A stretch of DNA of 32,000 nt from Halogeometricum borinquense DSM 11551 (GCF_000172995.2 NC_014729.1:1200001-1232000), one strand, 5' to 3'; shown: positions 5,398 through 29,790, counted from the stretch's first letter. Numbers and translations: made by a program. Notes: generated by a model from the letters alone, not told the origin.

Positions 5398-5402
5398 GGC
5401 TG

Positions 5403-7523: not shown

Positions 7524-7586
7524 GCGAGGGTTACCGGTGTGGTGATGAGTGCGTGAGTGGTTGCGTGAGGCTGTACTGGCGCATGG

Positions 7587-15300: not shown

Positions 15301-17329
15301 GCCGACCTCGTTCGACGCCGTCCGCCCAACGGCCGCGTGGAGTCTTCCACGCAGCGACCGTGAGCGCTTCAGCCTCGACGTGAACGGGCTACAGCCCTTG
15401 CTACCGTTCGTAGACGGGGACTTCCCAACAAGAGAAAGTGAAACGCCCGTCAGCTTCGAAGAACTCGCCGACACACTCGGTATCGGGGTCCGGCTAGAGC
15501 AAGGCACGTTCTCACCACAGGACGCCGAACGCGTGATCAGTCGTGTCGGGGAGTTACTCGCGTGGACCGATGACGACCTCGCTCAGTACAGCAGTGCTGT
15601 CGAACTACTCTACACACGCGTCGCTGAACTCCTCCCGAGACTAACGCATGGCAACCAGATCAGTGGGGAGTGGGACCCCGAACAAAGTGGGCTCGCGGAC
15701 GCACTTGTCCTCTGCCGGGTTGATGATAAGTACTCCCTCAAGCGCGCGGGTGACACCTACTTCGTCCGGTCACGAAGCAGTCGTGACCGCTACGGAAACC
15801 TCGGCGTTCCACTCCTCGCTATGTTCAAATCAGAAGCCGTCAGTCTCGGCGAATACTGCGGCGCAACCGACTTGCGAGCCGCTGTCGAGAAACAACCCGG
15901 ATACGGCGATGAACGCCCTCTCCCGACGTCTGTCTCTGGCTTCGAAATCGACACCACGTGGCTCCAGACCGTCCTTGCCGCGCTCGTTCTCCGACTCCGA
16001 ACAAACCGACCATCATCCGCACTCGTCGACCAAGACACGACCCGAACCAAGTCATTCTTCGAGAACATCGTGTTCGTCACCGACCTCGATCTCAACATCA
16101 CGCTCACCGACGGCAGCTGGAACCGAAATCTCGACCCGAAACCGCAACCGTACCACATTGAACGCGACGGCGACACGATCACCACGATCCTCATCGACGC
16201 GACACTCAACCGAGAGGCGTTCGTCGACGCACTCACCGGCGCATTCACCGACCGGCTCGATGTCCCACAGTACTACGAAGCCGTCAACAACCTCATTGAC
16301 CACGCGTTCGGGAACGAAACGCCAGCAATCGCGTTACGCGAACGACTCCGAACCGTCGGCAGCGAAGTTCCGAACGGCCAAATCGAAGTGACTCGGAAAG
16401 CACTCTTCGAAAGTGACCATGAGGACCCACCGAAAGACGACGGCGTGACAGACCACCCACCCGACCCTAAACCAGACAATGGTGGCGCATTCGATTCCAC
16501 TACGAACACACAAACCGCAGCAGCTAACGGCGGATCGGGATCATCCACCGGCACGGCTGGAACCAGCGCACACTCCTCGCGCATCCCCAGTATCGACGCC
16601 GTCACTCGAATCGGCGACCGACGAATCGCCGAATCACTCCGGAACGCCGATGTCTCCACAAACCCACCCGATAACGGTGGTCGTCAGGACTTGGGGAACG
16701 AGCAATCCACATCTAGTAGTCATATCGGTGGGGGTGGAGCTGCGTCACAAGAGTACCGTGACGAGATAGACGCGTTCGGTATGGCAATTACGCTTGATGC
16801 AGAACGAACGCGGCTCGCGGACGCCGACGAACCCAACCCGGAATCGAAAGTCTTCGACGTTCACACACCAGAAGAATACCTAAAGCACCGTGAACACTCC
16901 GAGCTCCTCGAATCCGCGATTCACCGGTTCGCAGACCAACGCGGCCTATCCGCCGCAGAAAACCCGCTCGACCGCGACTGGCCCGGATTCGACGTCCTAA
17001 CGATCCGGACTGACGACAACGGCGACGCAGTGATCGACCGTTGCATCGAGCTGAAAACCTCCGGCCTGAACACACGCAAGCCATCCCTCTCCTGGAACGA
17101 ATGGAAAGCCGCAGGCGGCCCGCTCAGCAAGCATTACTACCTCTACGTCGCCCGGAACATCCGACTCGGCAACAGTGGCGACGCAGAACTCCTCGAAATC
17201 CCACAACCATTCGACCGGCTACGCAACCGGCAACGCGAAACACGCGAACGGAATGTTCAGGTAGACCTCCGCAGCTTCGACTTCGACGACGACCCAATCA
17301 TCGAACGCCCCATTGAGTGGGAGGAATAA
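12305..17329 (+). CDS. Giant GHKL ATPase (sacsin/NO VEIN-type Bergerat fold) with a C-terminal DUF3883 (NOV_C) PD-(D/E)XK-like domain
   Basis: 1674-aa ORF. The N-box is FELLQNAVDE (12452..12475, checked), G1 is LVANNGAAFSFEDL and G2 is IGHKGRGFTSVLGVTDNPSVYS. A low-complexity linker covers about 16418..16747. The C-terminal domain (16748..17326) reads WPGFDVLT...VIDRCIELKTSG (E1582 codon 17048..17050, checked)...LSWNEWKAAG...HYYLYVARN. Together these give the D...E-x-K and YyLYvV pattern of DUF3883. The middle stretch of about 1200 aa has no motif I can recognise. Confidence 0.8.
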   Translation: MCMNGSGPASISDIQCRHVDTYESNPDRIEADAGTERQDRADYEGRFVFELLQNAVDEMDDTGEPRVRFELTEDSLLVANNGAAFSFEDLYALTLTTRTTKAGETTIGHKGRGFTSVLGVTDNPSVYSENVQAQFNRKTTADLLKGNDKISAERDDALAAEQVPLLCLPHETTTPPRVRALLNDGFTTVFKLPLRDPARHRESIHTKLEGLDANTVALLPQLQEIEISSLGQDWEWEIARHDMTGCDATLIELTTDTADGPEETRTDWFCLFEQTDLDQKQISDRADLTQPEVDAMGELSVGIAFSVTPGDSPPSLRPKGWKLKPVYGETHNQPPYLHVFLPTKERSPIPALVTGTFQSDTSRRNLTLNYDDSRGYDGQFNALLFMAVGELLADSVISFVEQSATSEGDFLTTLDPSLGQGRDWSFTKGTVEGCLFDAIKTRLTSVEFLPSARANQRVAIDDITVPPTSAQLSDLGTDFVSLLQSGDSQADDRPHVPSAELSTHQHAQTLVAYGASQYDASSVPEALAAVSVDPPLRIVDEREFGRTPPDDDEPCRLTVDPVLVYLVRLRKTLESDEDRSAFDDACRRHDVFPVEIKTDQEGTKHAIRGSNEAGTIFMPPEGDITADALPTLEFLPRDLYHGTNADRAAPLREDALPANFDADVQTIWDINDYLFSQVFDTAISPHLPGPNSPNADPSILASGGVLRTIREMTDVQSPENDRSPESPLLYQSAKKPYSALAQLPVPTQPTEDGTVEWHPAHRVYFSSDWQTTLNRPEDAYIEPFLNAVAAQTDSERFDPKFLASPSWFTTDKDEERVETLKAWAAFFSWLGVFEHLRPLPLFAPGEQQTYRQTQGLSQPSNSTITASEDLQRDGVYSVDHRYTGLTDVEWQSYRDHLVDAVTSEIPDPDEQYLFQVNSLEYASEILSAAKQSGEVGSRLLRHLTRWWDHGLSKRRHATVAEFTNERWRGSNVSYVFTHDEQSALGWNLWVWQLRQSSWVPTSFDAVRPTAAWSLPRSDRERFSLDVNGLQPLLPFVDGDFPTRESETPVSFEELADTLGIGVRLEQGTFSPQDAERVISRVGELLAWTDDDLAQYSSAVELLYTRVAELLPRLTHGNQISGEWDPEQSGLADALVLCRVDDKYSLKRAGDTYFVRSRSSRDRYGNLGVPLLAMFKSEAVSLGEYCGATDLRAAVEKQPGYGDERPLPTSVSGFEIDTTWLQTVLAALVLRLRTNRPSSALVDQDTTRTKSFFENIVFVTDLDLNITLTDGSWNRNLDPKPQPYHIERDGDTITTILIDATLNREAFVDALTGAFTDRLDVPQYYEAVNNLIDHAFGNETPAIALRERLRTVGSEVPNGQIEVTRKALFESDHEDPPKDDGVTDHPPDPKPDNGGAFDSTTNTQTAAANGGSGSSTGTAGTSAHSSRIPSIDAVTRIGDRRIAESLRNADVSTNPPDNGGRQDLGNEQSTSSSHIGGGGAASQEYRDEIDAFGMAITLDAERTRLADADEPNPESKVFDVHTPEEYLKHREHSELLESAIHRFADQRGLSAAENPLDRDWPGFDVLTIRTDDNGDAVIDRCIELKTSGLNTRKPSLSWNEWKAAGGPLSKHYYLYVARNIRLGNSGDAELLEIPQPFDRLRNRQRETRERNVQVDLRSFDFDDDPIIERPIEWEE

Positions 17330-17411
17330 TCCACTCATTCTACGACAACTGAGCCAATAGCGATCCCACACTCCCTAAACTAATGATAACAGGTCGTGAA
17401 TAGCGATAATA

Positions 17412-18644
17412 ATGGCAGCTACACTCACTGAACCCACCGTTCTCGCTGCCGCGAAGGACACTCTCTACCCTGATCTCGACACGAACACAGACCATTACGC
17501 TGTCACAGAAACGCAGTTCACGAAATCCTCTTGGGGTGGATGGGAGATTCCTGACGATCTCCGTCGTCGCCTCGCGCCGTACAACACCATTCGACTCACG
17601 GACGGGGAACCTGATCTCCTCGGCGTTGGGATGCCTGCTCTCGAAGTCCTGAACGCCGATGCCACAACAACACCGGTCACGGTAATCGAAGCGAAAGGCC
17701 ACAATAGCGATCCGAGTGCTGCTGATGTCCGAACCGGCATCAACCAGGCGCACGGTCACTTATCCGAAGTCAACATCGGGTACGTCGCTGCCCCCATCCA
17801 AAGCATCACCGACCAGGCACGGGCACTAGCTCGGGACCTCAACATCGGCGTCATCGGCGTCGAAAGCCCGCACGACGCAATGCTCATCGAACCAGCTCGC
17901 GTCACCGGTGTCGGCGACTTCTCCACCACTATCGACGCGATCCGGTTCCAAGCCACAACGCACCAACTCACCGAAGGCAGCTTCCCAGTCAATCACCCGA
18001 AGAACTACCTCGGCTACGCACTCGCCCTCGCGGCAGATGGCGGCACCCCTGACGTTTACTCCGAGCACGTAATCAACAGCGTATCAGGTGGCCGTCGCGG
18101 CGCAATCCTTCTCGGTCTCGTTGACAATCAGCCTCACGGAGAGACACTCACGCATCTCGGTGCAGAAGTCGTCCGCTTCGCCCGCAGCCACCACGGGACT
18201 GTCGATGCTGCACTCGACGAATTCGCCTCGTGGAAAGGCCGTTCAACACCGTTCACCGACCTTGCTCCTCGGTGGGCGCAACTCGCCCGCTCAGTCGCCA
18301 TCCAGTACGAGCCAACGCAACTCATCATCGAAGCACTCGAACGCCTCCACCAACACGGCATCAAACCCGCCACCATCGACACCGTCGTCCGAGAAGCCTG
18401 CCGCATCAACCAACCACTCGCCGTGGAAGTATTCTTCACCCAATCTAGGCGTGAAGACGTGCTCACCGCCGATGGCGACATCGACGAATCAGTGCTTACG
18501 GATCCGACTGTGTACAAGTCCGGCATTCACTTCCAGTTCAAGTACCACCTCCGACATATTGGACTGCTCACGGCAGGCGGAACCGATGACAAAGACGAGG
18601 TCCTATCGAACAATTGGGAGCTAAATCAAGCGGTCGGACTCTGA
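17412..18644 (+). CDS. Hypothetical protein with an N-terminal PD-(D/E)XK (Hjc/restriction-endonuclease-like) motif
   Basis: 410-aa ORF. TDGEPD68LLGVG ... PVTVIE93AK95GHN followed by QAHGH fits a D-(x)n-E-x-K nuclease core. The C-terminal half is helical and unassigned. A TATA-like taatgata lies at 17381..17388. Confidence 0.55.
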   Translation: MAATLTEPTVLAAAKDTLYPDLDTNTDHYAVTETQFTKSSWGGWEIPDDLRRRLAPYNTIRLTDGEPDLLGVGMPALEVLNADATTTPVTVIEAKGHNSDPSAADVRTGINQAHGHLSEVNIGYVAAPIQSITDQARALARDLNIGVIGVESPHDAMLIEPARVTGVGDFSTTIDAIRFQATTHQLTEGSFPVNHPKNYLGYALALAADGGTPDVYSEHVINSVSGGRRGAILLGLVDNQPHGETLTHLGAEVVRFARSHHGTVDAALDEFASWKGRSTPFTDLAPRWAQLARSVAIQYEPTQLIIEALERLHQHGIKPATIDTVVREACRINQPLAVEVFFTQSRREDVLTADGDIDESVLTDPTVYKSGIHFQFKYHLRHIGLLTAGGTDDKDEVLSNNWELNQAVGL

Positions 18645-18649
18645 TTGGC

Positions 18650-19996
18650 TCACTCTTCGCCTGACTTACTGGCCTCTGTGATGAGGTTCCCGAACCGTCG
18701 GAGCAGGACTTCTGCATTCTCCTTAGTTGTTGTCGGTTGGTACTGCTCCTCCTCGTACTCTGCCAGTTGGATGCTTGGGTGAGCCAACAGGTTGAGCGAC
18801 TGTTCAATGACGTGCTGGTCCGGAACCCGCTCCTCATTGTACATGCCTTTCAAAATCAAACGGAGCCGGTCAGCGGTTCCTTCCTCTGGGTCTGCTCGTT
18901 GAAGCGCTTCCATCACGGCAAGCAAATCCTCAGTCCCACCAAGACGAGTCCGTAGTTCATCATCGATCTGATCAAGCCGGTCATCTTGGAATGCACCCTG
19001 CTCAGTAAGATATGTTGAGAGTGCTTCCGGCGGAATCCCGTAGGTATCTCGCCGTTCTAAGAGCGCCTTGAGGTGATCGGTTGCAAGGAGGACGATTCCT
19101 TGCCGGTCCGCATCTTCAATTGCTGCCGGGGTGAAGCCAGGTGCAACTACAATCGCTTGGTCGGCCGAATGTCGCTCTTTATGCCCTTGGATTCGCGTTG
19201 CATCTGGCGATGCCAGCGTTCCACTGCTTCGTGCCTTCACTTCAACGACCGCATGAATCGGTGCGGTAACCTCGACATCCGTATCGTCCCCACCTTCTAT
19301 CCACCGTGCCTCAAACCCCAACCGAGAGAACGCCTTAGCGACAAGCTCTTCCAACTCCTCATACTGGTCACCATCCCGACTCGCCGCAACGATACGCTCT
19401 CCCAGACCGAGTTCCTGTTCTTCTTCAGACTCCTCCTGCAACGAGTCCTCATCGAACTCATGAACCCGGACACCACTCCCCGTTAACTCATTAACTGCGG
19501 TTTCAACGGACTCGTACGCATCCTCTACATCTCGGATACGCGCATCGGACACCCGACTGAATCCCTGCGGGATGTAATTATCTTGGTACCCAACAAGCTC
19601 GTTGAACGACTGGACATCCACATCAATCTCCGCCACACCGGTCAAGAACACCAAATACCGCCACGGACTTTCAGGGTCCCACGGATTCCCCTCAGTACGC
19701 CAGAGATGCTCAGCCAGGTCAAGATCATCCCGTGTTCGAACAACAGTGGCCTGCGCAATGTACCGCCCATCCCGGTAAATTAACGCGATGTCACCACCCT
19801 CCACGAACTGCCACTTCGAATCAACTGACGTCCCCCAAAGATGCACCTTCTCCGACTCCGAATCAGTAACGGCCTCAACTTCGGCATCAGAAAGATGTTC
19901 CGCAAACTCCGCTGGGTCATGCCCTCCCTTCACAGACTGCAGATAATCCTGATAGGCATCCTCACGTCCAGCTGTAATAATGGCTATCCCCGTCAT
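18650..19996 (-). CDS. Mrr-type restriction endonuclease domain fused to an N-terminal PUA/EVE-like domain (candidate modification-dependent nuclease)
   Basis: 448-aa ORF. The central region reads ELVAKAFSRLGFEARWIEGGDDTDVEVTAPIHAVVEVKARSS ... QAIVVAPGFTPAAIEDADRQGIVLL, which gives the Mrr_cat D...E-x-K pattern. The N-terminal VHLWGTSVDSKWQFVEGGDIALIYRDGRYIAQATV resembles PUA-like (EVE/ASCH) beta-barrels. That part of the call is weak. Confidence 0.6.
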   Translation of the reverse strand: MTGIAIITAGREDAYQDYLQSVKGGHDPAEFAEHLSDAEVEAVTDSESEKVHLWGTSVDSKWQFVEGGDIALIYRDGRYIAQATVVRTRDDLDLAEHLWRTEGNPWDPESPWRYLVFLTGVAEIDVDVQSFNELVGYQDNYIPQGFSRVSDARIRDVEDAYESVETAVNELTGSGVRVHEFDEDSLQEESEEEQELGLGERIVAASRDGDQYEELEELVAKAFSRLGFEARWIEGGDDTDVEVTAPIHAVVEVKARSSGTLASPDATRIQGHKERHSADQAIVVAPGFTPAAIEDADRQGIVLLATDHLKALLERRDTYGIPPEALSTYLTEQGAFQDDRLDQIDDELRTRLGGTEDLLAVMEALQRADPEEGTADRLRLILKGMYNEERVPDQHVIEQSLNLLAHPSIQLAEYEEEQYQPTTTKENAEVLLRRFGNLITEASKSGEE

Positions 19997-20188: not shown

Positions 20189-20956
20189 ATGGGCACACTT
20201 GTCATCGACATTGAAACCGCCAGCCCGTTCGAAGAGCCGCCCGACAACTCGAACGACACCCAGTACTTCGAACTCTTCGCTGTCAGCCTCGCGTACGCTG
20301 ACGACCTGAACGACACACCAGAAACCGAAGTGTTGTTCCGGAGCGGCGACTGGGACGACCAGTATACGATTGACCTCTACGAGCGCCTACTCGACTGGTG
20401 TGATGACCGCAGCGTAGATCGTCTCCTCACGTATAACGGCACCTGGTTCGACGGCACGCACTTGCTGAACTGGGCCTGCAACATCGACGATAGTGCTAAC
20501 CGAGACTTCTTGACACGCACAGAGGCCTTGTTCGAGAACCACGTTGATGTCGCGCTCGCAGCTGCCGATGAGTACGAAGCCGAGCTATGGGACGACCAGC
20601 ACATCCTTCCTGACTGGAAGGTCTACGACCTTGCTGGGATCGACAACGACAGCGTCTGGTACGACGACTACGACTTCCCCGACAACTATCTCTCCGGAAT
20701 AGATGGGAAAGCTGTCCAAGGCAAGCACATCGGGCAAGTCCTCGGCGACAAATACGTTCAAAACGTCGAAGCCGGCATTGAACATACCAGCGTCCACCGC
20801 GAACTCACACAACTCCTCAAAGACTACTGCCTTAGCACGTCGCGGACCTCATCAACCTTTACACCACCCTCGGAGGTCCCAATCTCGATGATACCTACCG
20901 CCGGCCCGCCACCGACATCGTCTGACGCGTATTCCTCCCATCATCCCAATACTTAG
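20189..20956 (+). CDS. DEDDy 3'-5' exonuclease related to the PolB exonuclease domain; the C-terminus appears frameshifted
   Basis: 255-aa ORF. ExoI is LVIDIETAS and ExoII is LLTYNGTWFDGTHLL. After DYCLS (20822..20836) the listed frame becomes low-complexity (TSRTSSTFTPPSEV...). The frame reached by inserting 1 nt after 20836 reads D-VADLINLYTTLGGPNLDDTYRRPATDIV and stops at 20923..20925. That insertion completes a Y-x3-D ExoIII motif. Confidence 0.65.
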   Translation: MGTLVIDIETASPFEEPPDNSNDTQYFELFAVSLAYADDLNDTPETEVLFRSGDWDDQYTIDLYERLLDWCDDRSVDRLLTYNGTWFDGTHLLNWACNIDDSANRDFLTRTEALFENHVDVALAAADEYEAELWDDQHILPDWKVYDLAGIDNDSVWYDDYDFPDNYLSGIDGKAVQGKHIGQVLGDKYVQNVEAGIEHTSVHRELTQLLKDYCLSTSRTSSTFTPPSEVPISMIPTAGPPPTSSDAYSSHHPNT

Positions 20957-20988: not shown

Positions 20989-23900
20989 TCAGTCTGATTT
21001 CTCAATCGGGTCGGGCGCTGCTGAAATCCGATCAAGGAGTCTATCTGCGGCCGTTGCTGCCGTGGATGGTTCGAGTCCGTGCTGACAGTACGTGTCAACC
21101 ATCGTTGACCGAATTTGTTCGTCCGGTCGCGTTGGGCGCGGATCAAGATAGTTCTCTTGCCGGAAGTACTCCTGGAGTTCCTCGATTTTATCTTGGCGGA
21201 AGTGGCTGACATCCGGCAGTGCATCGAGGATCTCTTCTGGATCTCCGTCGACTCTGTCTGCCAGCTCGCTTACCTTGTCGATGAACGTATTGCTGACGGC
21301 ACCACTGGCTTCCAAGACACTGCGGTCAACTGCCTTCCCGCGCCCAACTGTGTACGCCTCAACGAACGATTCTAATGCCGCACCGTGTCGGCGGACTTGC
21401 TTCCGGGCCGACTGCGACAGGAGGCCATCAACGGCACCGATCTCCAGCAACGACCGGAGATGCCCCCAGCGCTCGATTCCTGCACACCGCAGTCGGTACA
21501 AGACTTCCGGCTCCTCAGTCACGTACCAGAGCGGTGCCGACGCCGCTCCTTGTCGTGGGTCGAACGTTGGCACGCCTAGTCGCTCACGGTACGACCAGTG
21601 ATCGTCGCCGTCCGGGGCAGGGACGTTGATCGAACCGGCCGTCTCAACTGCCGGCGGCTCCGCGACTGGGTCGTGCCCGTCGCTCGCCGTCAATTGCTGG
21701 AGACTGTACTCAACATCCGACTCTTCGAGACGAGTTTCCCACCGTGCGCGTTCGTCGTGCCGGGCCGTGAAGTAGAATACTTGCCTCCCTTCCCGGGCCA
21801 GGTCAATCACGGTGTCAAGAACCGTTTCAGCGCGTTGGTCATCGAACGGTGCCAGCGTCTCGTCAAGCAACAACGGGGGCGCAGTCTCTTGCTCTCTGTG
21901 TTCGACGAAAGCAACCCGAACCGCGAGCAGGACCTGCACTCGCGTCCCACTGGACAAATCGTTCAGGTCAACGCGCCGCTGTTCTCCCGTATCGAACGCC
22001 CTGAACGTCCCGTCATCCAGTCTGAGCTCAAACTGTCCGTCAGTAATCCGCCGCAAGAGATCATCCGCCCGCTGAAACACCGGCTCCTGATTGCTGGAAA
22101 CCGTCTCCGCCTCGACGAACTCAAGGAGTGTATCCGTGACCGCGTCGGCCACGTCCGCTTCGAGCGCTTCCTCAAGACCTCGCAAGGCTTCACCTCGTTC
22201 TTGAACAGCGTCAGCAATCTCCGTCGACGCCTTCGCATCCTCGATCTCCTTCTCCAGCGTCGTTTTCTCCTGTAACAACTCGTCGTACTGGTTCGCAATC
22301 TCCCGTTTTTCGTCTAACTCTCGCTCTAAGTCGTCTCTGTCTCGCTCTTCGATCTCTTCCTCGTAAGCATCGTGTTCACGAAGATCTGAACGGCGATTCT
22401 CAAGTGTAGTCTCCGCAGTACCTTTCGCCTCAACGGCTGCTTCGTACTCCGAGTATTGCTCACACAGTGTTGCAAGCCGCTCCCGGTCGCCAGGCTCCAA
22501 GCCACGCTCGGTGAATAATTCCTCTCGGTCGGCCCTGTACCGGTCGAGTTCCTCGTGGGCCACAGCGACACTCCCATCGACCTCTTCGAGTCGCTGCGTC
22601 GCATTCTCGTAGTCACGCTGTCGCTGTTCGAGACTCTCAACAGCAGCCGTCGCATCCGCACTCGTTTCGACCGTGTAGGAGTACGCATCAGTCGTGTAGG
22701 GCTCAATCGTCGCGCAGAACTGCTCCCGATACGTCTTGACCTGATCGTTGGCTTCCTGTAGTGCCGCCTGTTTCCCGACAACAGTCTCGTCAGCAGCCTG
22801 CCAGCGCTCAACACGCTCGACCGTTACTGCCAGTTCAATGTCGTCGTTGACCTCGGTATCGAACCGATTCTGAAGACGATCACGCGCCGTCTCCAGTTCA
22901 TCTCTGATGTCATCGATGTCAAACTGTGCACGGAGCTCATCCCGCTTCTGCGCCTCCTGCTCGTCCACTTCGATGACCCGCAGTCGCTCACGAAGATCAG
23001 CTACCCGGTCCCTGACTCCGTCAGGTTCCCACGAATCTGGCTCTGGAAGCCCAGTCTGCCGGAATGTCTCCGCATGGGTCGCCCTGGCAGTGTTGTCCGT
23101 GCCAGTATCGTCACTCCTCGCGGAGAGCACCGCGTAGCCAGCGAGAGCGAGTCCGAAGAGTGTCAGCAGGCCACCAGCCGGATTGACTGTGAGCGCGATC
23201 ACGACGCCTGACAGCGCCGTCAAGATCCCTGCTGTGATGGCCGCTACTACAGGGCCTCGACTACCCGTGTCGTCAGGAGCTTGTTCTGGCGGGGCTGCGA
23301 GCCAGTTCTCAAGCGCATTCCGCCCGCTTTCGAGCGTTCCACGATCCGCTGATTCCTTCGACTCCCCGGCGAGCCACTCATCGATAGCAGCCTCGACCTG
23401 TCCCTTCCCGTCGACTTCCGCTACCTTCGAAACGAACGAACGAAGCTCAGCAAGATCGTCCGTGTCGACCTCGCGGAGGGTCTCACCGTCAAGGTCCAGG
23501 GGAATCTTCTCCCGTACCTCACTGCGCTTGGCTTCTGCATCAGCTACTTCACGCTGCAAACGATCACGATTATCTTCAGCATCATCGAGGTCATCTCGGT
23601 ACCCTCGAAGCGTCTGCAACACCCCATCGGCAACCCCGTCCTCAGGTAGTTCCGTGCCAGCCAGTTTGTCCGCGGCCTCACGGTATTTCACCGCGGCCTC
23701 CTGCTCAACGCGTTTCTGTTGCGCTATCTGCTCGTCAAGATCGTCGAGCTGGTCCAGTTCATCACCATCGAACGACGCCAACTCATCCGGGAACGATGTT
23801 ACCTCATCGACCCGCTGGTCATAGGCATCCTGCGCCTCCCGGTACTGAATCGCCGTCTCAAGCAGATCAACGCGCTCACTCGCATCGGCGGCGGCCGCGA

Positions 23901-24549
23901 GGTCCCCTTCGAGTTGACTGAGACGAGTTCGTTCTGCCTCCAAATCCGGCGCGTCCCGCCGCAGTTCCTCGACCTTATCGATAGCCGCCGCCGCCTCTTT
24001 CGTAGCACTAATTCCTCGTGTGGCGGGACTGGCCCCGTCAGTCAGGTCGAACTCACTACGGACTGCGTCGATATTGAACCCGCCAGTCGACTCACGCTGA
24101 ATGACGCTTGCAAACTCGCCGTCGTCCGTTTCCTCTTGCAACATGTCGTGCAACGACAATGCGTACCGACGACCACCATCCAACGACGGCACCGGGATCG
24201 CATCAGCGGGTTCGCCATCACGAAAGTGCTCACTGACGCCACCGTGCAGTTCGATCCGCCGCAATTCCCCATCGTAGGTAAGGTCAGTCCGAACAGTCGC
24301 CGACGACGGGGCTTCATCCGGCCATAAGGACCATCGGATCGCCTCTGCCAGCGTCGATTTACCAGCCGCATTCGCGCCGTAGACAACGTTGACTCCCGGC
24401 GAAAACCCATCAAGCGAGAATCCAGCCGTCTCAAACCCAGGCGCACGGTCAAGGGTAACAGCGTTAATTGCGACCGGGGTTTCTCGACCCTCTCCAGTGA
24501 CGCGGTCGGAATCGGTCTGGTCACCGTCAGTCGGGGCCGGCTCACTCAT
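20989..24549 (-). CDS. SbcC/Rad50-like SMC-type ATPase (YhaN-like) with a central hydrophobic hairpin and a C-terminal extension
   Basis: The ORF track gives 20989..24705. I place the start at ATG 24549 (MSEPAPTDGDQ...), which overlaps the upstream stop (ATGAGTGA at 24542..24549). The extra 52 codons are Arg/Ser-rich and lie inside the upstream gene. Walker A is VVYGANAAGKSTLAEAI (24352..24378). Long acidic heptad-like coiled-coil regions follow. The ABC signature is LSSGTRVQVLLAVRVAF and Walker B is PPLLLDETLAPFDD. Confidence 0.85.
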   Translation of the reverse strand: MSEPAPTDGDQTDSDRVTGEGRETPVAINAVTLDRAPGFETAGFSLDGFSPGVNVVYGANAAGKSTLAEAIRWSLWPDEAPSSATVRTDLTYDGELRRIELHGGVSEHFRDGEPADAIPVPSLDGGRRYALSLHDMLQEETDDGEFASVIQRESTGGFNIDAVRSEFDLTDGASPATRGISATKEAAAAIDKVEELRRDAPDLEAERTRLSQLEGDLAAAADASERVDLLETAIQYREAQDAYDQRVDEVTSFPDELASFDGDELDQLDDLDEQIAQQKRVEQEAAVKYREAADKLAGTELPEDGVADGVLQTLRGYRDDLDDAEDNRDRLQREVADAEAKRSEVREKIPLDLDGETLREVDTDDLAELRSFVSKVAEVDGKGQVEAAIDEWLAGESKESADRGTLESGRNALENWLAAPPEQAPDDTGSRGPVVAAITAGILTALSGVVIALTVNPAGGLLTLFGLALAGYAVLSARSDDTGTDNTARATHAETFRQTGLPEPDSWEPDGVRDRVADLRERLRVIEVDEQEAQKRDELRAQFDIDDIRDELETARDRLQNRFDTEVNDDIELAVTVERVERWQAADETVVGKQAALQEANDQVKTYREQFCATIEPYTTDAYSYTVETSADATAAVESLEQRQRDYENATQRLEEVDGSVAVAHEELDRYRADREELFTERGLEPGDRERLATLCEQYSEYEAAVEAKGTAETTLENRRSDLREHDAYEEEIEERDRDDLERELDEKREIANQYDELLQEKTTLEKEIEDAKASTEIADAVQERGEALRGLEEALEADVADAVTDTLLEFVEAETVSSNQEPVFQRADDLLRRITDGQFELRLDDGTFRAFDTGEQRRVDLNDLSSGTRVQVLLAVRVAFVEHREQETAPPLLLDETLAPFDDQRAETVLDTVIDLAREGRQVFYFTARHDERARWETRLEESDVEYSLQQLTASDGHDPVAEPPAVETAGSINVPAPDGDDHWSYRERLGVPTFDPRQGAASAPLWYVTEEPEVLYRLRCAGIERWGHLRSLLEIGAVDGLLSQSARKQVRRHGAALESFVEAYTVGRGKAVDRSVLEASGAVSNTFIDKVSELADRVDGDPEEILDALPDVSHFRQDKIEELQEYFRQENYLDPRPTRPDEQIRSTMVDTYCQHGLEPSTAATAADRLLDRISAAPDPIEKSD
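23122..23253 (-). other. Predicted two-helix transmembrane hairpin in the middle of the SMC-like coiled coil
   Basis: GPVVAAITAGILTALSGVVIALTVNPAGGLLTLFGLALAGYAVLSA is 44 uncharged residues with an NPAGG turn. Charged coiled-coil sequence flanks it on both sides. The protein has no CxxC hook motif anywhere. Confidence 0.6.
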
Positions 24550-25828
24550 CTGCGGGCACCCCCTGCTGCTCAACGAACACGTCGACGAGTTGCCGAGCTT
24601 GTCGCCGGAGTACTTCCTTCGTTTCAGCTTCCGTCGGGCGAGTGTACGTCTCGTCGTGGCTCTTGAGCTCCCGATACGCATTCGAGTCGTGGGTCTCGCG
24701 GACACTCGTATGAGCAGCCTCTATGACGTCCCGGTACGGATCCAGCGGTTCGTCATCGTCAAGGGCACGCAGCAACCCGGCCAAGTATCCGACCGGGTCA
24801 TCGTCGCCAGCGCGTTCAGCGAGCTCAATCGACGGTTTCGTATCGACAGTCACGTCGAGAACACGCACTGCCGTCCCGCCGTCCGTGAGCTCAATCTGTT
24901 CAAGCTCCCCGCGTCGGCTGCGCAGATCAGTGTCCGCATCCGTTCGTCCTGCAACCGTTACGGTGACCGCAAGGAGCTCGGTTTCGGAGCCGCACTTCGT
25001 GGCTGTCTCACGTAACTGCTCGTGAGTAGCATCGACGACGTCGTGGAATCCGTGGTCAGGTTCCGTCGAGACAACGACCTCCTCGTACTGCAGTGTCGCC
25101 GACCTCAGCGGCTCCGTCTCTACTGTCCCATCGCTCTCGACCGAGACAAGCCACGCACCGTGACCGCTAGTCTCACTCGGATCCAACGGTTGAAGCGACC
25201 CCGGATAGAGAACTGGCGGGTTCTCGTGACGGAGCCCTGGAACGTGGAGGTGGCCAAGAACCCACGCCGAATGCCCACTCGTCGCCAAGTCATCCACAGC
25301 GACCGGGGCGTACCGATCCTCCCCACTAACGTCTGCGTGGACGACGCCGAGACGCGGAACGCCCTCATCAACCAAATCATACGCATCCAACGGATTCTCG
25401 TGGTAGTACCGGCCAGGGAACGACCACCCGTCCACGTGAAGGCACGGCTCACCATCGGCGTCGGTCAAGGCTGTTCGCTCCCACGACCCATCCCGACCGA
25501 GCAACTGCAGATGCTCGATTGCCTCAGCCAAGTCCGGGAGTACGTCGGCGTCGTGGTTCCCAGCGACAGCAATGAGGGGAATACCAGCCTCTGCAAGTCT
25601 GGTCGCCACGGACTCAACGGCACCGAACGCTTCCGCATACCGGTTCTCCTGGTCAACCAGGTCACCCGCAACGACGACCGCATCAACTCCCTGAGTAACA
25701 GCCGACTCCGCGAGATTAGCCCAGATTGTACGGGGAGAAAAATCGGCCGGATCGAACCGGTCAGGGAGCCGGCTTGGACGACGCCCAATATGAATATCTG
25801 CTACACACAGAACCTCTACTGATGCCAT
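24542..25828 (-). CDS. Calcineurin-like metallophosphoesterase, SbcD/Mre11-like nuclease subunit (YhaO-like)
   Basis: 428-aa ORF. Phosphoesterase motifs appear in order: VLCVADIHIGRR, AVVVAGDLVDQ, AVAGNHD, VLGHLH. The gene is translationally coupled to the downstream SMC-like ATPase gene. Confidence 0.85.
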   Translation of the reverse strand: MASVEVLCVADIHIGRRPSRLPDRFDPADFSPRTIWANLAESAVTQGVDAVVVAGDLVDQENRYAEAFGAVESVATRLAEAGIPLIAVAGNHDADVLPDLAEAIEHLQLLGRDGSWERTALTDADGEPCLHVDGWSFPGRYYHENPLDAYDLVDEGVPRLGVVHADVSGEDRYAPVAVDDLATSGHSAWVLGHLHVPGLRHENPPVLYPGSLQPLDPSETSGHGAWLVSVESDGTVETEPLRSATLQYEEVVVSTEPDHGFHDVVDATHEQLRETATKCGSETELLAVTVTVAGRTDADTDLRSRRGELEQIELTDGGTAVRVLDVTVDTKPSIELAERAGDDDPVGYLAGLLRALDDDEPLDPYRDVIEAAHTSVRETHDSNAYRELKSHDETYTRPTEAETKEVLRRQARQLVDVFVEQQGVPADE

Positions 25829-25963: not shown

Positions 25964-26104
25964 TCACACCCACTCAAGCACCGCATTGTGCTGCGCAACA
26001 TACTGCGGCTTCAAACCATCATCGGGAATTGAGATTCGTTCTCCTGCATGGTCCATAATCGTGCATTGGAGTACGTCGCTCTGTGTTTCGAAGCTCTGAT
26101 CTAC
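25964..26104 (-). pseudogene. Orphan 3' remnant (46 codons plus stop) of an HNH-nuclease gene paralogous to 27041..28033
   Basis: Minus-strand translation gives VDQSFETQSDVLQCTIMDHAGERISIPDDGLKPQYVAQHNAVLEWV*. The C-terminus of the 330-aa protein is VNPSFETQSDVLQRTILDRAGERISIPEESLNPQYVAQHNAALEWV*, so 36 of 46 residues are identical. At nucleotide level 25962..26101 against 27039..27178 is 118/140 identical and ungapped, by hand alignment. The remnant has no upstream coding continuation or start codon. Confidence 0.75.
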
Positions 26105-26976
26105 ACGAATTCAACTGGCTTTTCCTCGTCCTCTACGGGGATCGAATATTCGTTTTGGAGGCTGACCCGCCGTTCTACCAACTCTTCGGATAACTCCTCA
26201 CAGTGCGTCCGATACCGGTCGATTTCCTCTTGTAGTTCTTCGTACTCGTCAGCCGCCACCTCATCAAGGATACGACACAACTCGTCCTGGTGTTCTGACC
26301 AAATTTCCGCGTGTTCGTGTTGATCGCTATATTGATCGATTTGCTTGAAAATGGCACCATTGAGTGTCCGAATCCCTCCTTCATCGAACTCGCTCAACAA
26401 ACTGTGGTCTTCGAGGTATCGCTTCACAGCGGGCTCAAGCAAGCTGTTAATTTGACCCCCGAGATCGGCGATTTCGTTGAGGAGGTAGTCATGCGTCTGT
26501 ATCATCTTCCACAGGCGTGGTGCATCCCGTTCAAGTCGAGTGTAGAGATGCACGTCGTCCGTCTGCAGCAGCGAGACGGGTTCGGATTTCGAAGTATGCA
26601 TCCCATCAAAAGCTAGGCTCTTCCGCGGCGAATAGCTGCCCCAGTCGATCACAGATGAGCCTTCAACCGCCTCTATATTATTCCGCACAACCTCATGGTA
26701 CGGGATAAGAATCTCTTCCAATTCCTCCCGGATTATCGGCTTCTCCGCTTCTTTCACCCGTTCATCAACCAGTACCTGGTTCTGAAGAGCAGTCCACACC
26801 GTCGCAGTTGCTAACACGAGCGTACCGAGAACTCCTACGAGCGAGGCAGCGACGGATACCCGAGAATTGAGCGTTAGATTCGACCATTGAAACACTAAGT
26901 AACCCGAAACTACGACCAAGATGAATATGAACAGGCCGAGGAACACGAGCAGAGCATACTGAATACGGTTTCTCAT
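26101..26976 (-). CDS. Membrane protein of unknown function (two N-terminal TM helices plus a soluble helical domain)
   Basis: 291-aa ORF. The TM segments are YALLVFLGLFIFILVVVSGYLVF and VAASLVGVLGTLVLATATVW. Two 60-nt spot counts give 47% GC, against about 60% in a pAgo line. The stop codon lies inside the first bases of the HNH remnant. Confidence 0.7.
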   Translation of the reverse strand: MRNRIQYALLVFLGLFIFILVVVSGYLVFQWSNLTLNSRVSVAASLVGVLGTLVLATATVWTALQNQVLVDERVKEAEKPIIREELEEILIPYHEVVRNNIEAVEGSSVIDWGSYSPRKSLAFDGMHTSKSEPVSLLQTDDVHLYTRLERDAPRLWKMIQTHDYLLNEIADLGGQINSLLEPAVKRYLEDHSLLSEFDEGGIRTLNGAIFKQIDQYSDQHEHAEIWSEHQDELCRILDEVAADEYEELQEEIDRYRTHCEELSEELVERRVSLQNEYSIPVEDEEKPVEFV

Positions 26977-27038: not shown

Positions 27039-27178
27039 ACTCACACCCACTCAAGCGCCGCATTGTGCTGCGCAACGTACTGCGGGTTCAAACTCTCCTC
27101 TGGAATCGAGATCCGTTCTCCTGCACGGTCGAGAATCGTCCGTTGGAGCACATCACTTTGGGTCTCGAAGCTCGGATT
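27039..27178. repeat. Direct-repeat partner of 25962..26101 (the 3' end of the intact HNH gene)
   Basis: This is the same hand alignment as above. The copies are offset by 1077 nt and similarity starts 2 nt beyond the stop codon in both. Confidence 0.75.
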
Positions 27179-28033
27179 CACGCACAGCCGGTAGTCCTGA
27201 TCGATAGTGAATAGCTCCCGGTCGAACGCCGCGTGATGCGTCTTACTAAGAGCCAGTACGTTCGATAAATCGGCCCGGTATTCCGGGTAGTCATTCCACG
27301 ACAAGACATGGGCCACGTCCAACAGACCGGGATGATCCACCCCGGAAATCGGACACGTACGGTCGTGCCGAGACAACACGGTCGCACGGAACTCCGGATC
27401 GACCGACCGTGCATGGACCGTCGTTTCGTACGTCCCAGCACGCATCTCGGTATCGCTCACCGACGGTGTCCAGTCCGAATCAGCCCACACCTCCACCGCG
27501 CTCTCAACGAACTGTAGGCCGTTATCTGTCAACGCGTACTCGTCGCCGCGCTTCTCAACGAGTCCCATACTCCGCAGCCAATTCACCCTCTGCTTCGCCA
27601 TATCCGTCTCGCCACGGCTCCACCCTAACTCCGGATGCGTATCGAGCTGCTGCTCACTCACCTCTGCAAGCGTCATCGGGCCAGCAGCCAACGCATACAT
27701 GAGACTCCTCAGCCCGACGTTCCGATCACACATAATTCGCAGCAGCGTCGCCACATCACCCTGCTCAACGTACTCCCGACCAGCACCACCAAGCTCCCAG
27801 TGATCGTTTACCTGGCGGAGAAACCCGACCTGCTGTAAATAACTCACCCGCCGCATAATCGAATCCCGACTAGAAACGTTCTGGAACGAACCACGGTGCC
27901 ACCCAACGAGTTCATCCGACGTCGGCTGATGCGCTCCAACGAAGTCGAGAACCGCATCCAATGTCTCGACATATCGTGTCCCCCCACCAAACATCGGAAC
28001 GATACTACGGAGCCGATCTGGAGGCATGAACAA
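27041..28033 (-). CDS. HNH endonuclease (HNH_2 / putative restriction endonuclease type) with N-terminal winged-helix-like domains
   Basis: 330-aa ORF. The C-terminal HNH core reads CPISGVDHPGLLDVAHVLSWNDYPEYRADLSNVLALSKTHHAAFDRELFTID. The N-terminal approximately 180 aa contain two HTH-like segments (IMRRVSYLQQVGFL and RVNWLRSMGLVEKRGDEYALT). Confidence 0.8.
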   Translation of the reverse strand: MFMPPDRLRSIVPMFGGGTRYVETLDAVLDFVGAHQPTSDELVGWHRGSFQNVSSRDSIMRRVSYLQQVGFLRQVNDHWELGGAGREYVEQGDVATLLRIMCDRNVGLRSLMYALAAGPMTLAEVSEQQLDTHPELGWSRGETDMAKQRVNWLRSMGLVEKRGDEYALTDNGLQFVESAVEVWADSDWTPSVSDTEMRAGTYETTVHARSVDPEFRATVLSRHDRTCPISGVDHPGLLDVAHVLSWNDYPEYRADLSNVLALSKTHHAAFDRELFTIDQDYRLCVNPSFETQSDVLQRTILDRAGERISIPEESLNPQYVAQHNAALEWV

Positions 28034-28107
28034 ACAGTGACAGAGCCGGATGATGATCCTTTCCCCAGGAGAGATTAACTCCGAGGCTGGCCGAGAGTTG
28101 TCGAAGG

Positions 28108-28350
28108 CTATGCTTGTGAGGAGTCCTCAATTGGTGGCCGCAAGTCACGCCACCGGAAATCGACTTCCTCACCTGAATCAAATGCAACCCGGTAGATCTG
28201 ACCATCCCGCTCGTCAGCGGTGAGCGAATCCGCATCATCACTCAAAACTGAAACGACCCGGCCGTGCTCCCCGTGATACACCTGATGATCAGGATCCGTC
28301 TCATCAGGAATATCGACCCGGACGCGATCACCCTCAGAGAAGCGCTGCAT
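28108..28350 (-). CDS. Small acidic hypothetical protein (possible SH3/KOW-like beta barrel)
   Basis: 80-aa ORF with haloarchaeal composition (FSEGDRVRVDIP...HGRVVSV...IYRVAF). It has no recognisable catalytic motif. Confidence 0.5.
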   Translation of the reverse strand: MQRFSEGDRVRVDIPDETDPDHQVYHGEHGRVVSVLSDDADSLTADERDGQIYRVAFDSGEEVDFRWRDLRPPIEDSSQA

Positions 28351-28407
28351 TATCGGACCAGACGACAGCGATGGTTATCAGCACTTGGTATCTACGACTG
28401 CTCGTAG

Positions 28408-29790
28408 TTAGAGCGGGTGCCGGGTCGGTGTCACTCCCGCAGCAGAAATTGAGAGTTCCGTCACAAACGCCTCATGATCTCGGTACGCCGGCCCGACGCG
28501 TACGGCCGGTCCCGTGTATAACACCGGCGTTCCATCTTCCGTCTCGAACGAATACCCGTTCTCGAAGTCATCGTACTTAGGCCGGTGCTCATCGCCCACT
28601 AGCACACAGTCGAACGAGACGCGTGACTGCGCGAGCAACTCGTCGAGATTGACATCCGCAGTCGAACGATTCCGGTACGGCGTCACGCCATCGTGGAGAC
28701 ACAGCACATTCGGTCCCGGCGACGCCGCACCGAAGGCAATCTCCGACGGACGCCACCCCAGCGACTCGTACTTTCCGACATCGTCGAGTCCAACGTTCTC
28801 CGCTGAGACCCCGTATGCGTCAAGCGGACCGCCAGCAACCGACGTCGGGCTGGCCGATAACTCGATGAGGTACTCGTTTCGAACCTGGTCTTTCAGCCAT
28901 GCAATCCCATCTACAGAGTTCGAATAGTACGGAATCGCCGCGTTGTGATCGTGTGTCCCGAGAATACAGTACACTGGGATATCACTGAGAGCCAAGTCAC
29001 GCAAACTCGACTCAGCAGCGTCGAGTGTCACCGCGTCCACCTCGTGATCCAGCACATCCCCGGTGTGAATCACCGCATCAACGTCACGCTCCATCGCAAT
29101 CGTTCGAATCCGTCGAATCGTATCCCGACTATCAATCTCGTCAATCCACGGTACTGTCTTCCCACTCCCGGTCTCCGCACGATTCTCGTACCCGAGATGC
29201 GTATCACTCACGAACAACACACTCGTCGATTCACCACGTCCCCCCAGTCCCGCCCGGTCCCCCGCCCGACGAACTCGCTCTCGATCAAGCAACACGTCAA
29301 CCCCGTCATCAGGCCGATCAGCCGCAGGTTCCGCTGGGAATTCAGCCAGCAGCGAGATCGCCCAATCAACCTCCGCAGACGAGACGTTTACCGGAAGCAC
29401 TTCTCCGGACTCCGGCGCAACCGGTAACCTCGCCCCGGTCGGCACATACCGGCGATCCTCCTCTCGCGGCTCCGCCACCGTAATCGCCGAAAACTCCGTT
29501 ACCCGCTCCCCATTCCCATGTCGCCGCGCGTAATCCTTCCGCTTCCCCAAATTCCGCCTCTTCTGCTGCGCCCCGTAACACGACGCCTCATCAGCCAGCA
29601 ACTCATCACCGTACAGCACGGACCGCAACGCCAACTTCCACTCCGAATCCACCCCCGTAGGCAGAGACCCATACAGAACAGAAAGAGAATCGTATAACTC
29701 AGTCAACTCATTCCCAGAACCCATCGTATACAGTACCTCAATTTTGCCAAGTGATAGCAATTTCTCTCCACGCCTCCCCTCAATTCTCAA
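28408..29790 (-). CDS. Metallophosphoesterase (Mre11/SbcD-like fold) with an N-terminal domain of about 190 aa and unknown function
   Basis: 460-aa ORF. Motifs appear in order: SVLFVSDTHLGYEN, AVIHTGDVLDHE, CILGTHDHN, LCLHDG, VLVGDEHRP. An alternative start is M23 (ATG 29724). Confidence 0.75.
   Translation of the reverse strand: MRIEGRRGEKLLSLGKIEVLYTMGSGNELTELYDSLSVLYGSLPTGVDSEWKLALRSVLYGDELLADEASCYGAQQKRRNLGKRKDYARRHGNGERVTEFSAITVAEPREEDRRYVPTGARLPVAPESGEVLPVNVSSAEVDWAISLLAEFPAEPAADRPDDGVDVLLDRERVRRAGDRAGLGGRGESTSVLFVSDTHLGYENRAETGSGKTVPWIDEIDSRDTIRRIRTIAMERDVDAVIHTGDVLDHEVDAVTLDAAESSLRDLALSDIPVYCILGTHDHNAAIPYYSNSVDGIAWLKDQVRNEYLIELSASPTSVAGGPLDAYGVSAENVGLDDVGKYESLGWRPSEIAFGAASPGPNVLCLHDGVTPYRNRSTADVNLDELLAQSRVSFDCVLVGDEHRPKYDDFENGYSFETEDGTPVLYTGPAVRVGPAYRDHEAFVTELSISAAGVTPTRHPL

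Follow-up and report, generated by a model that had tools for sequence, protein, structure and literature searches.

A predicted SbcE/SbcF-type ATPase-nuclease pair with a putative membrane hairpin at the coiled-coil apex in Halogeometricum borinquense

The locus described here lies in Halogeometricum borinquense DSM 11551 (GCF_000172995.2 NC_014729.1:1200001-1232000). The window, i.e. the whole stretch of DNA that was analysed, comprises 32,000 nucleotides (nt), and positions are counted from its first letter. The part under study, 20989-25828, holds a two-gene unit on the minus strand, in which a nuclease gene (24542..25828) comes first and is followed by a long open reading frame (ORF) for an ATPase ending at 20989. 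The features of the unit are listed below with the type of evidence in parentheses; lengths of proteins are given in amino acids (aa).

24542..25828, minus strand: Mre11/SbcD-type metallophosphoesterase, 428 aa, the nuclease subunit (Pfam, NCBIfam and PDB matches, motif conservation)
24542..24549, minus strand: overlap of nuclease stop and ATPase start, 8 nt, ATGAGTGA (direct sequence reading)
20989..24549, minus strand: SbcE/YhaN-like Rad50/SMC-type ABC ATPase, 1186 aa plus stop (Pfam, AlphaFold2, hhalign)
24040..24483, minus strand: ATPase head, N-terminal half, residues about 23-170, including Walker A, GANAAGKS, at 24355-24378 (alignment, PDB matches to the Rad50 N-terminus)
23296..24012, minus strand: coiled-coil arm, ascending, residues about 180-418, with the juxtamembrane motif ALENWLAAP at its end (AlphaFold2 helices H180-H418)
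23119..23256, minus strand: apical hydrophobic helical hairpin, residues 432-477, helix-NPAGG turn-helix, putative membrane anchor (composition, AlphaFold2, homologues)
22045..23088, minus strand: descending coiled-coil arm, residues about 488-835, starting with R..H...F..TGL..P..W (AlphaFold2 helices H488-H835)
21694..22044, minus strand: ATPase head, C-terminal half, residues about 836-952, with the LSSGTRVQ signature, Walker B PLLLDETL, D-loop and GRQVFYFTA (alignment, PDB match to the C-terminal lobe of Rad50)
21601..21687, minus strand: flexible linker, residues about 955-983 (AlphaFold2 confidence below 50 for 955-973; gappy and variable in the alignment)
21022..21600, minus strand: family-specific, all-helical C-terminal domain, residues 984-1176 (AlphaFold2, conservation)

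The 428-aa protein was matched by the Pfam model Metallophos with 41 bits at a cut-off of 21.5, and its closest sequence matches in PDB are P. furiosus Mre11 and SbcD. Two NCBIfam models, Mre11_Halo (48 bits, cut-off 550) and sbcd (44.6 bits, cut-off 77.65), gave weak hits below their thresholds. When 38 family members were aligned, the nuclease motifs D11-x-H13, G55-D56, G90-N91-H92-D93, H164, and G192-H193-x-H195 were found to be 94-100% conserved. All five catalytic motifs of Mre11/SbcD are retained in the phosphoesterase, and an intact Mre11-type catalytic site is predicted. The ATPase is translationally coupled to the nuclease by the 8-nt overlap, and in related loci the two genes likewise overlap by 4-8 nt or abut. 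A GTG at 24705 as start of the ATPase was ruled out and the ATG at 24549 was preferred, because the close homologues are all about 1186 aa long and all start at the latter position. A first-pass annotation of this DNA, made from the sequence alone, had proposed an SbcCD/Mre11-Rad50-type pair in which a metallophosphoesterase is translationally coupled to an ATPase of 1186 aa. The overlap and the lengths of the homologues agree with this proposal, as do the motifs of the phosphoesterase and the motifs and fold of the Rad50-like ATPase.

The ATPase was recognised by Pfam AAA_23 (30.9 bits, cut-off 27) and scored 21.4 bits with AAA_27/YhaN (PF13514, cut-off 22). NCBIfam Rad50 models reached 22-28 bits at cut-offs of 700-1000, and the SbcC equivalog was likewise far below its threshold; in the PDB sequence search, Rad50 ranks first. 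Residues 58-65 are the Walker A motif GANAAGKS, LSSGT at about 865 is the signature and LLLDE at 893-897 is Walker B, all three being conserved throughout the family. According to the alignment, G58, N60, G63, and K64 are invariant in the N-terminal part of the head, and L865, Q872, L874, R878, E886, P892, D896, L899, D903, R922, Q923, and A929 in the C-terminal part, where S866, T869, R870, and E897 are conserved to at least 90%. An AlphaFold2 model was built from an alignment of 40 sequences (mean predicted local distance difference test, pLDDT, 80). It displays a split head resembling SMC and Rad50 proteins and long helical arms, and its top Foldseek matches in PDB are Smc5/6, condensin, Mre11-Rad50, MukB, JetC, and LmuB. 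In the protein, long antiparallel helical arms connect the two parts of a split ABC head that carries the Walker A, signature and Walker B motifs, and in both respects, the motifs at the two protein ends and the coiled coils between them, the first-pass annotation was borne out. Conserved positions mark the distal parts of the arms: L413, W416, and L417 at the end of the ascending arm are invariant or almost so, and P504, W507, and V512 are conserved at the start of the descending one. In the model, the descending arm exceeds the ascending one by about 100 residues and is interrupted by several helix breaks, at about 618-630, 680-689, and 725-738. Because of these features, the arms may hold an elbow or an extra helical sub-domain and may not constitute a simple two-stranded rod.

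At the apex, residues 432-477, GPVVAAITAGILTALSGVVIALTVNPAGGLLTLFGLALAGYAVLSA, form a run of 46 residues that lacks D, E, K, and R, while 34% of the residues of the protein are charged, and at this proportion the chance expectation of such a run is about 6e-6 per protein. An uncharged segment of 44 residues with an NPAGG turn that had been pointed out earlier (23122..23253) falls within it. The peak Kyte-Doolittle mean over 19 residues is 2.31, and in the AlphaFold2 model the NPA turn connects two helices, 432-454 and 458-478. Only four cysteines are present in the ATPase (612, 696, 1022, and 1155), isolated as had been stated, and CxxC does not occur. All 87 homologues and all 137 representatives that were examined possess the hairpin, at about 0.37 of the length, and lack an apical CxxC. 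Among 217 family proteins, the hairpin has a median span of 38 residues with a turn consisting mostly of P, A, G, V, H, and N. In the same set, the two flanks of 10 residues contain 1.70 and 1.83 K/R compared to 1.29 expected, an enrichment on both sides, and D/E are depleted in the N-terminal flank (0.94 versus 1.94 expected). The helices differ in sequence between members, hydrophobicity and the central proline being all that is retained in the hairpin, and the motifs ALENWLAAP and R..H...F..TGL..P..W on either side are conserved. By these sequence features, the apex has the appearance of a generic anchor set on a conserved neck. The apex is a uniformly apolar helix-turn-helix of about 38-46 residues with a central polar residue and proline, and a zinc hook is absent. 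The pattern of flanks and composition would agree with an in-out-in hairpin, both ends of which continue into cytoplasmic coiled coils.

A word-indexed search yielded 87 full-length relatives of the ATPase with 25-91% identity, all of 1144-1211 aa. When 1.84 billion cluster representatives were searched exhaustively with the profile, at least 150 clusters (50% identity) were obtained, all those listed scoring above 1000 bits and nearly all being near full-profile matches, and 2704 proteins had E <1e-30. The family is present in haloarchaea and in at least 10 bacterial phyla. In a GTDB scan with one genome per species the matches listed were all bacterial, and the lineages include at least Gammaproteobacteria (Thioalkalivibrio, Arhodomonas), Myxococcales, Bacteroidota, Balneolales, Gemmatimonadota, Chloroflexia, Planctomycetota, Lentisphaeria, Trueperaceae, and Spirochaetales. 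A homologous phosphoesterase gene is located directly upstream in all 40 listed loci with enough upstream DNA, the bacterial proteins being 26-42% identical. All-against-all clustering of ORFs in 45 loci did not reveal a third conserved gene, only shadow ORFs inside the two genes. The unit therefore appears, from these comparisons, to be a strict two-gene module. HNH_2 and a second Metallophos gene were considered as parts of the system and rejected, being present in the Salarchaeum locus and missing from the 90%-identical Haloferax locus. Copies with 76-91% identity occur in genera of different haloarchaeal families, 11 haloarchaeal plasmids carry the family, and the DNA on either side of its haloarchaeal copies varies and is rich in defence genes, which indicates that the haloarchaeal operon is an accessory, horizontally moving module.

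The first-pass annotation had named the Bacillus YhaO/YhaN (SbcF/SbcE) pair as the closest described analogue. SbcE (YhaN) of B. subtilis was described in 2009 as a protein without the CxxC of SbcC/Rad50, with a unique central domain that is found in all SbcE homologues, is hydrophobic in its first half and contains a highly conserved proline (PMC2811018). The isolated central domain as well as full-length SbcE were completely insoluble in E. coli, and the central domain was not termed transmembrane (PMC2811018). The gene yhaN is located downstream of yhaO, which encodes SbcF, an SbcD-like nuclease, and SbcE and SbcF interact in the two-hybrid system; SbcE forms foci at the poles of competent cells and contributes to double-strand-break repair and transformation (PMC2811018). 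For comparison, 114 Bacillales proteins (Cohnella, Paenibacillus), all with PF13514 and many named YhaN by their sources, were inspected. The two windows of highest hydrophobicity in them are placed at 0.47 and 0.49 of the length and 2-15 residues apart, and a central CxxC was not found in them. With hhalign, the family aligned to four PF13514 proteins with E 5e-46 over 886 columns, from the N-terminal head through arms and hairpin to the C-terminal head, and to a single Cohnella YhaN with E 4e-26 over 876 columns and the same extent. The alignment to E. coli SbcC (E 5e-7) covered just 126 columns of the C-terminal head. PF13514 was detected at E<0.01 in 31 of 40 family members, and some close homologues have a precomputed assignment to it. 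Judged by the hhalign comparisons, the locus probably belongs to the SbcE/SbcF (YhaN/YhaO) lineage and is much closer to YhaN than to E. coli SbcC. The analogy named earlier is thus supported by the alignments, the shared hairpin and the gene order. The hairpin is not peculiar to this ATPase; the 114 Bacillales proteins and the SbcE paper of 2009 identify it as a trait of the whole YhaN/SbcE superfamily. The hydrophobic centre of SbcE was already reported then, and the trait is not a new principle.

What is new here is the C-terminal domain. The ATPase head ends at about residue 952 and is followed by the linker and a tail domain of ten helices (984-1176), and the alignments to YhaN end where this domain starts. 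It is kept in every full-length member of the family, archaeal and bacterial. Modelled alone with AlphaFold2 from 15 sequences, it reached a pLDDT of 91 and a predicted template modelling score (pTM) of 0.83. No match to the domain was found in Pfam, NCBIfam or PADLOC, and a profile search of PDB returned noise only, the best hit being RecA with E 0.005 over 26 residues. Foldseek detected no relative in PDB (best E 1.2) or in BFVD (best E 0.36), and a database search with the tail-domain profile retrieved only fragments of the same ATPase family and no other architecture. A segment of about 210 residues without a recognised motif had been noted at this place, and it appears from the model to be a conserved, confidently predicted domain for which no relative was found in Pfam, PDB or BFVD. 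Of 152 members, most of which are non-halophilic by composition, 97% have a tail domain that is net acidic. For this reason, nonspecific DNA binding was judged unlikely, and the tethered tail domain more likely serves in regulation or in binding a partner than in binding DNA. Tail-only or partial ATPase ORFs were also encountered in complete genomes and on plasmids, in Halobaculum (P0102, 235 aa, on a 589-kb contig), in Halovenus (P0108, 128 aa) and among plasmid matches (H10, H11). These stand-alone or truncated ORFs are probably decayed copies, consistent with gain and loss of an accessory gene.

From these data it appears rather probable that the pair is an autonomous two-gene operon of the SbcE/SbcF (YhaN/YhaO) lineage that encodes an ATP-gated DNA nuclease of the Mre11/Rad50 type. 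By analogy to Mre11-Rad50 and SbcCD, two ATPases and two nucleases would assemble, and ATP-driven engagement of the heads would clamp DNA and license the cutting of ends, hairpins, and protein-blocked ends. The hairpin, as predicted from its sequence, would be inserted in the cytoplasmic membrane with both ends cytoplasmic and a minimal external turn. Besides tethering the complex, it could join two arms in place of the hook; hook and SMC hinge are described as interchangeable dimerisation modules (PMC6969161). Unless folded, arms of about 240-340 residues could hold the heads as much as about 35 nm away from the membrane, and the complex might survey a shell of cytoplasm under it. The pair would then be an accessory, mobile machine for processing DNA ends that acts on DNA near the membrane, its tail domain serving in regulation or partner binding. 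A nuclease positioned at the cell envelope, as had been suggested before, is accordant with this as far as the favoured insertion of the hairpin is concerned, but the nuclease head itself would sit at the far end of the arms.

The genes surrounding the pair form a defence island, as had been recognised from the sequence. It includes a long pAgo, an AAA_14/DUF4143 protein of the PDC-S01 type, a Tiamat TmtA-like protein of 1674 aa, a protein with an Mrr domain and an HNH/PT-DNA-restriction-like protein. The window is syntenic with a 540-kb Haloferax plasmid at 90% protein identity. On the minus strand of 2435-10274, the gene for pAgo (895 aa, PADLOC pAgo 1091 bits) is followed by those for a PLD-family nuclease (5403-7523), a UvrD_C-like protein (3337-5397) and a Cas4-like PD-(D/E)XK nuclease (2435-3340), an arrangement suggestive of a pAgo operon that includes partners of the nuclease and helicase types. 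On the plus strand of 10533-18644, the AAA_14/DUF4143 gene (PADLOC PDC-S01) is followed by that of the 1674-aa Sacsin/HSP90-like TmtA match (226 bits) and by an ORF of 410 aa without family match; this trio also adjoins the pair on the Haloferax plasmid CP106967.1. Next to it are the gene of a 448-aa protein with Mrr_cat only at residues 213-313 (18650-19996, minus strand) and an ORF of 255 aa (20189-20956, plus strand), which has no family match and an N-terminal VIDIETAS resembling a DEDD/RNase H-like exonuclease motif. Both are missing from the otherwise syntenic Haloferax locus, where a DUF6884 gene is found, and this region is therefore regarded as an indel in the island. On the other side of the pair, between the HNH and nuclease genes, an ORF of 291 aa (26101-26976, minus strand) specifies an N-terminal transmembrane-like hydrophobic segment and coincides with the stretch of lowest GC content in the window (0.505). 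An insertion is suggested here, because the HNH_2 gene of Salarchaeum directly precedes the nuclease gene. Genes for an HNH_2/PT-DNA-restriction-like protein (PADLOC HNH 75 bits) and an unrelated 460-aa Metallophos protein are situated upstream of the pair at 27041-29790 (minus strand) and in the Salarchaeum locus (L002, 3708-8635), a linkage conserved in only part of the haloarchaeal clade and not seen in the Haloferax locus.

Six of seven haloarchaeal contexts are defence-like. The neighbours at four of the other loci are:

Salarchaeum: BREX, HNH_2
Natranaeroarchaeum: large helicase-nuclease, PIN toxin, Eco57I-type methyltransferase
Natronorubrum: GmrSD, DEAD/MZB helicase, AAA_5 protein
L049 (GCA_052060055.1): SNF2 helicase, DUF499

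The surroundings of the three annotated bacterial loci (L004, L046, L047) are lipid A/MsbA/ExbBD genes, malate synthase and glucokinase genes, or a kinase/phosphatase cluster, without a clear defence signature.

Two questions had to be weighed, the nature of the hairpin and the role of the pair. For the hairpin, membrane insertion appears to be the most parsimonious reading and is well supported by the sequences, because the segments are uniformly apolar, their insertion energies are near zero or negative, and their flanks are enriched in K/R. Using Hessa-scale values summed over 19-residue windows, which is a position-independent approximation, -0.5 and +1.5 kcal/mol were estimated for the two hairpin helices of the window ATPase, the next-best window reaching +9.8. 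The same pattern was seen in all 40 aligned members, with about -4 to +3 kcal/mol per hairpin helix and +7 to +10 for other windows. Several points weigh against the proposed membrane-anchored, Rad50-like machine, the approximate nature of these energies being one of them. The pLDDT of the hairpin is modest (54-68), and several hairpin helices, being Ala/Gly-rich, are marginally hydrophobic. Since each helix has just about 17-18 residues, the hairpin may also be re-entrant (monotopic) rather than bilayer-spanning. No residue of helices 432-454 and 458-478 is conserved to at least 90% in the 40-sequence alignment, so that nothing in them indicates a specific dimer interface. At the H-loop position after GRQVFYFTA (residues about 925-932, window about 21754-21777), most members have Q and the haloarchaeal subclade has R-H, whereas Rad50, SMC, and YhaN proteins have a histidine there (FTCH in YhaN); because of this replacement, the ATPase may cycle differently from Rad50. 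A soluble hairpin, which would be a buried core for dimerisation or tetramerisation and thus a hydrophobic hook, could account for the low AlphaFold2 confidence in the hairpin and for the many small-xxx-small spacings in its Ala/Gly-rich helices, which fit tight packing. It would also be in line with the Rad50 apex being primarily a dimerisation module (PMC6969161) and with the wording chosen for the SbcE domain, in which the term transmembrane is not used (PMC2811018). Yet in hundreds of sequences, including haloarchaeal ones with otherwise acidic surfaces, no charged or strongly polar residue is found on any helix face, and K/R are enriched at both flanks. The insolubility of SbcE and of its central domain in E. 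coli (PMC2811018) is not expected for a soluble hook either, and a four-helix bundle made of hairpins of about 38 residues would still expose a large apolar surface. A soluble core is consequently considered improbable. Of the earlier notion that a membrane hairpin replaces the zinc hook, the hydrophobic helical hairpin and the CxxC-free apex stand, and the membrane is favoured on sequence grounds only.

As to the role, an ATP-gated DNA nuclease with a membrane hairpin at its apex is probably the best explanation as a whole, and the sequences are compatible with more than one task for it. The pair could be a back-up or specialised factor of repair and recombination like SbcEF of B. subtilis, processing double-strand breaks or incoming DNA, with its location in a defence island being incidental. 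Homology to YhaN, the same gene order with the nuclease upstream, and bacterial contexts that are not defence-like favour such a function, and the experimental data on the relative SbcE point to double-strand-break repair and transformation, since mutants are sensitive to double-strand breaks and are transformed less efficiently (PMC2811018). The patchy, plasmid-borne and horizontally transferred distribution in haloarchaea does not fit well, nor do the C-terminal domain that is additional compared to SbcE and the PF13514 score just below the threshold. Moreover, haloarchaea already carry a canonical mre11-rad50 operon. A repair factor is therefore held as a tentative possibility. The same distribution, with 11 plasmids and near-identical copies in distant genera, is what would be looked for in a dedicated system against mobile genetic elements, in which a membrane-tethered nuclease intercepts linear or end-bearing foreign DNA, be it viral, plasmid or transforming, at the envelope and the C-terminal domain senses or licenses. 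The island in the window, with pAgo, TmtA-like, PDC-S01, Mrr, and HNH proteins, and five other haloarchaeal loci beside BREX, MmeI/Eco57I-type methyltransferases, GmrSD, SNF2/PLD helicases or toxin-antitoxin genes are in line with it, and membrane-localised, DNA-targeting defence is an established principle (Zorya, Kiwa, SNIPE; PMC12904381). However, neither protein matched a full PADLOC model, the three annotated bacterial loci are placed among ordinary metabolic or envelope genes, and length and architecture are uniform across more than 10 phyla without the swapping of effectors typical of defence modules. Defence islands also gather unrelated genes acquired horizontally, and an element for discriminating self from non-self is not evident. 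A dedicated system of this type is rather unlikely. Still less expected is a widespread, so far uncatalogued defence system in which the apex-anchored ATPase patrols the sub-membrane space, the Mre11-like nuclease destroys free ends of entering viral, plasmid, and transforming DNA, and the acidic tail acts as a sensor or safety catch, either as a DNA mimic or by binding a protein of the invader or of the uptake machinery. The role against mobile genetic elements proposed in the first-pass annotation thus persists for haloarchaea, where restriction of incoming DNA is plausible, and finds no backing in the annotated bacterial loci or in PADLOC; SbcEF-like repair or processing of incoming DNA is equally compatible.

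It is the tip of the arms, a zinc hook or a hinge, that defines Rad50 and SMC proteins, and a large, almost unstudied lineage has a membrane-type hairpin there instead. This trait is common to SbcE of Bacillus and a broader family of about 1150-1200 aa that occurs in haloarchaea and numerous bacterial phyla. Should the hairpin indeed be inserted in the membrane, the processing of DNA ends would be physically tied to the envelope, which would be relevant to the uptake of foreign DNA, the entry of viruses and the organisation of repair. In haloarchaea the operon of the family rides in defence islands and on plasmids, and Haloferax relatives carry it, which provides a genetically tractable test case. 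In the literature searched, no paper was found on this branch, on the centre of SbcE as transmembrane, or on the pair as a defence system.

Compared with known systems, the pair shares with Zorya, Kiwa, and SNIPE, which a 2026 review names as membrane-localised, nuclease-based defence (PMC12904381), the idea of a nuclease tethered at the membrane to meet entering DNA. There, separate membrane proteins recruit the nuclease, whereas here the apex of the ATPase would be the anchor, and sequence and architecture are unrelated. With Lamassu LmuB and Wadjet JetC it has in common the SMC-type head and arms, the Foldseek matches and, in haloarchaea, the location in defence islands. No PADLOC model was assigned to the pair: the nuclease was not matched, and the ATPase gave only partial LmuB, AriA, and GajA P-loop matches, that to LmuB scoring 57 bits over residues 514-881 against positions 268-524 of the 611 of the profile. 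The partners LmuA/LmuC and JetA/B/D are absent, the only conserved partner being the Mre11-like nuclease, LmuB has much shorter arms, and the apex of the window ATPase is hydrophobic. Membership in Lamassu, Wadjet, PARIS or Gabija was rejected, since the matches are to P-loops or partial coiled coils only, and so was ASRP (NF045487), which was matched partially with 38.7 bits at a cut-off of 300.

Rad50-Mre11 and SbcC-SbcD are nearer. They likewise combine, in an operon, a metallophosphoesterase nuclease and a split-head ABC ATPase with coiled-coil arms, they provide the best sequence matches among solved structures, and AAA_23 is matched above its cut-off. They differ by their CxxC zinc hook, in place of which the window family has the hydrophobic hairpin, no member having a CxxC apex, and by the missing C-terminal domain; in addition, E. 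coli SbcC is alignable only over the short stretch given above, and the equivalog scores for Rad50, SbcC, Mre11, and SbcD are far below their cut-offs. SbcE/YhaN is the closest described relative, although some differences are apparent. The C-terminal helical domain of about 200 aa is present in the window branch and lacking in YhaN. The turn of the hairpin is tighter, 2-5 residues with usually N/H/D/E followed by P, compared to 2-15 residues in YhaN, and the hairpin is found at 0.37 of the length instead of 0.47-0.49. Walker A reads GPNA(A/S)GK in the window branch and GPNEAGK in YhaN, and the PF13514 score of the window protein, 21.4, is just under the cut-off of 22. Common to both are a long-armed, SMC-like ABC ATPase free of CxxC, a central hydrophobic two-helix segment with a proline, and the position of the ATPase gene directly downstream of a gene for an SbcD/Mre11-like phosphoesterase.

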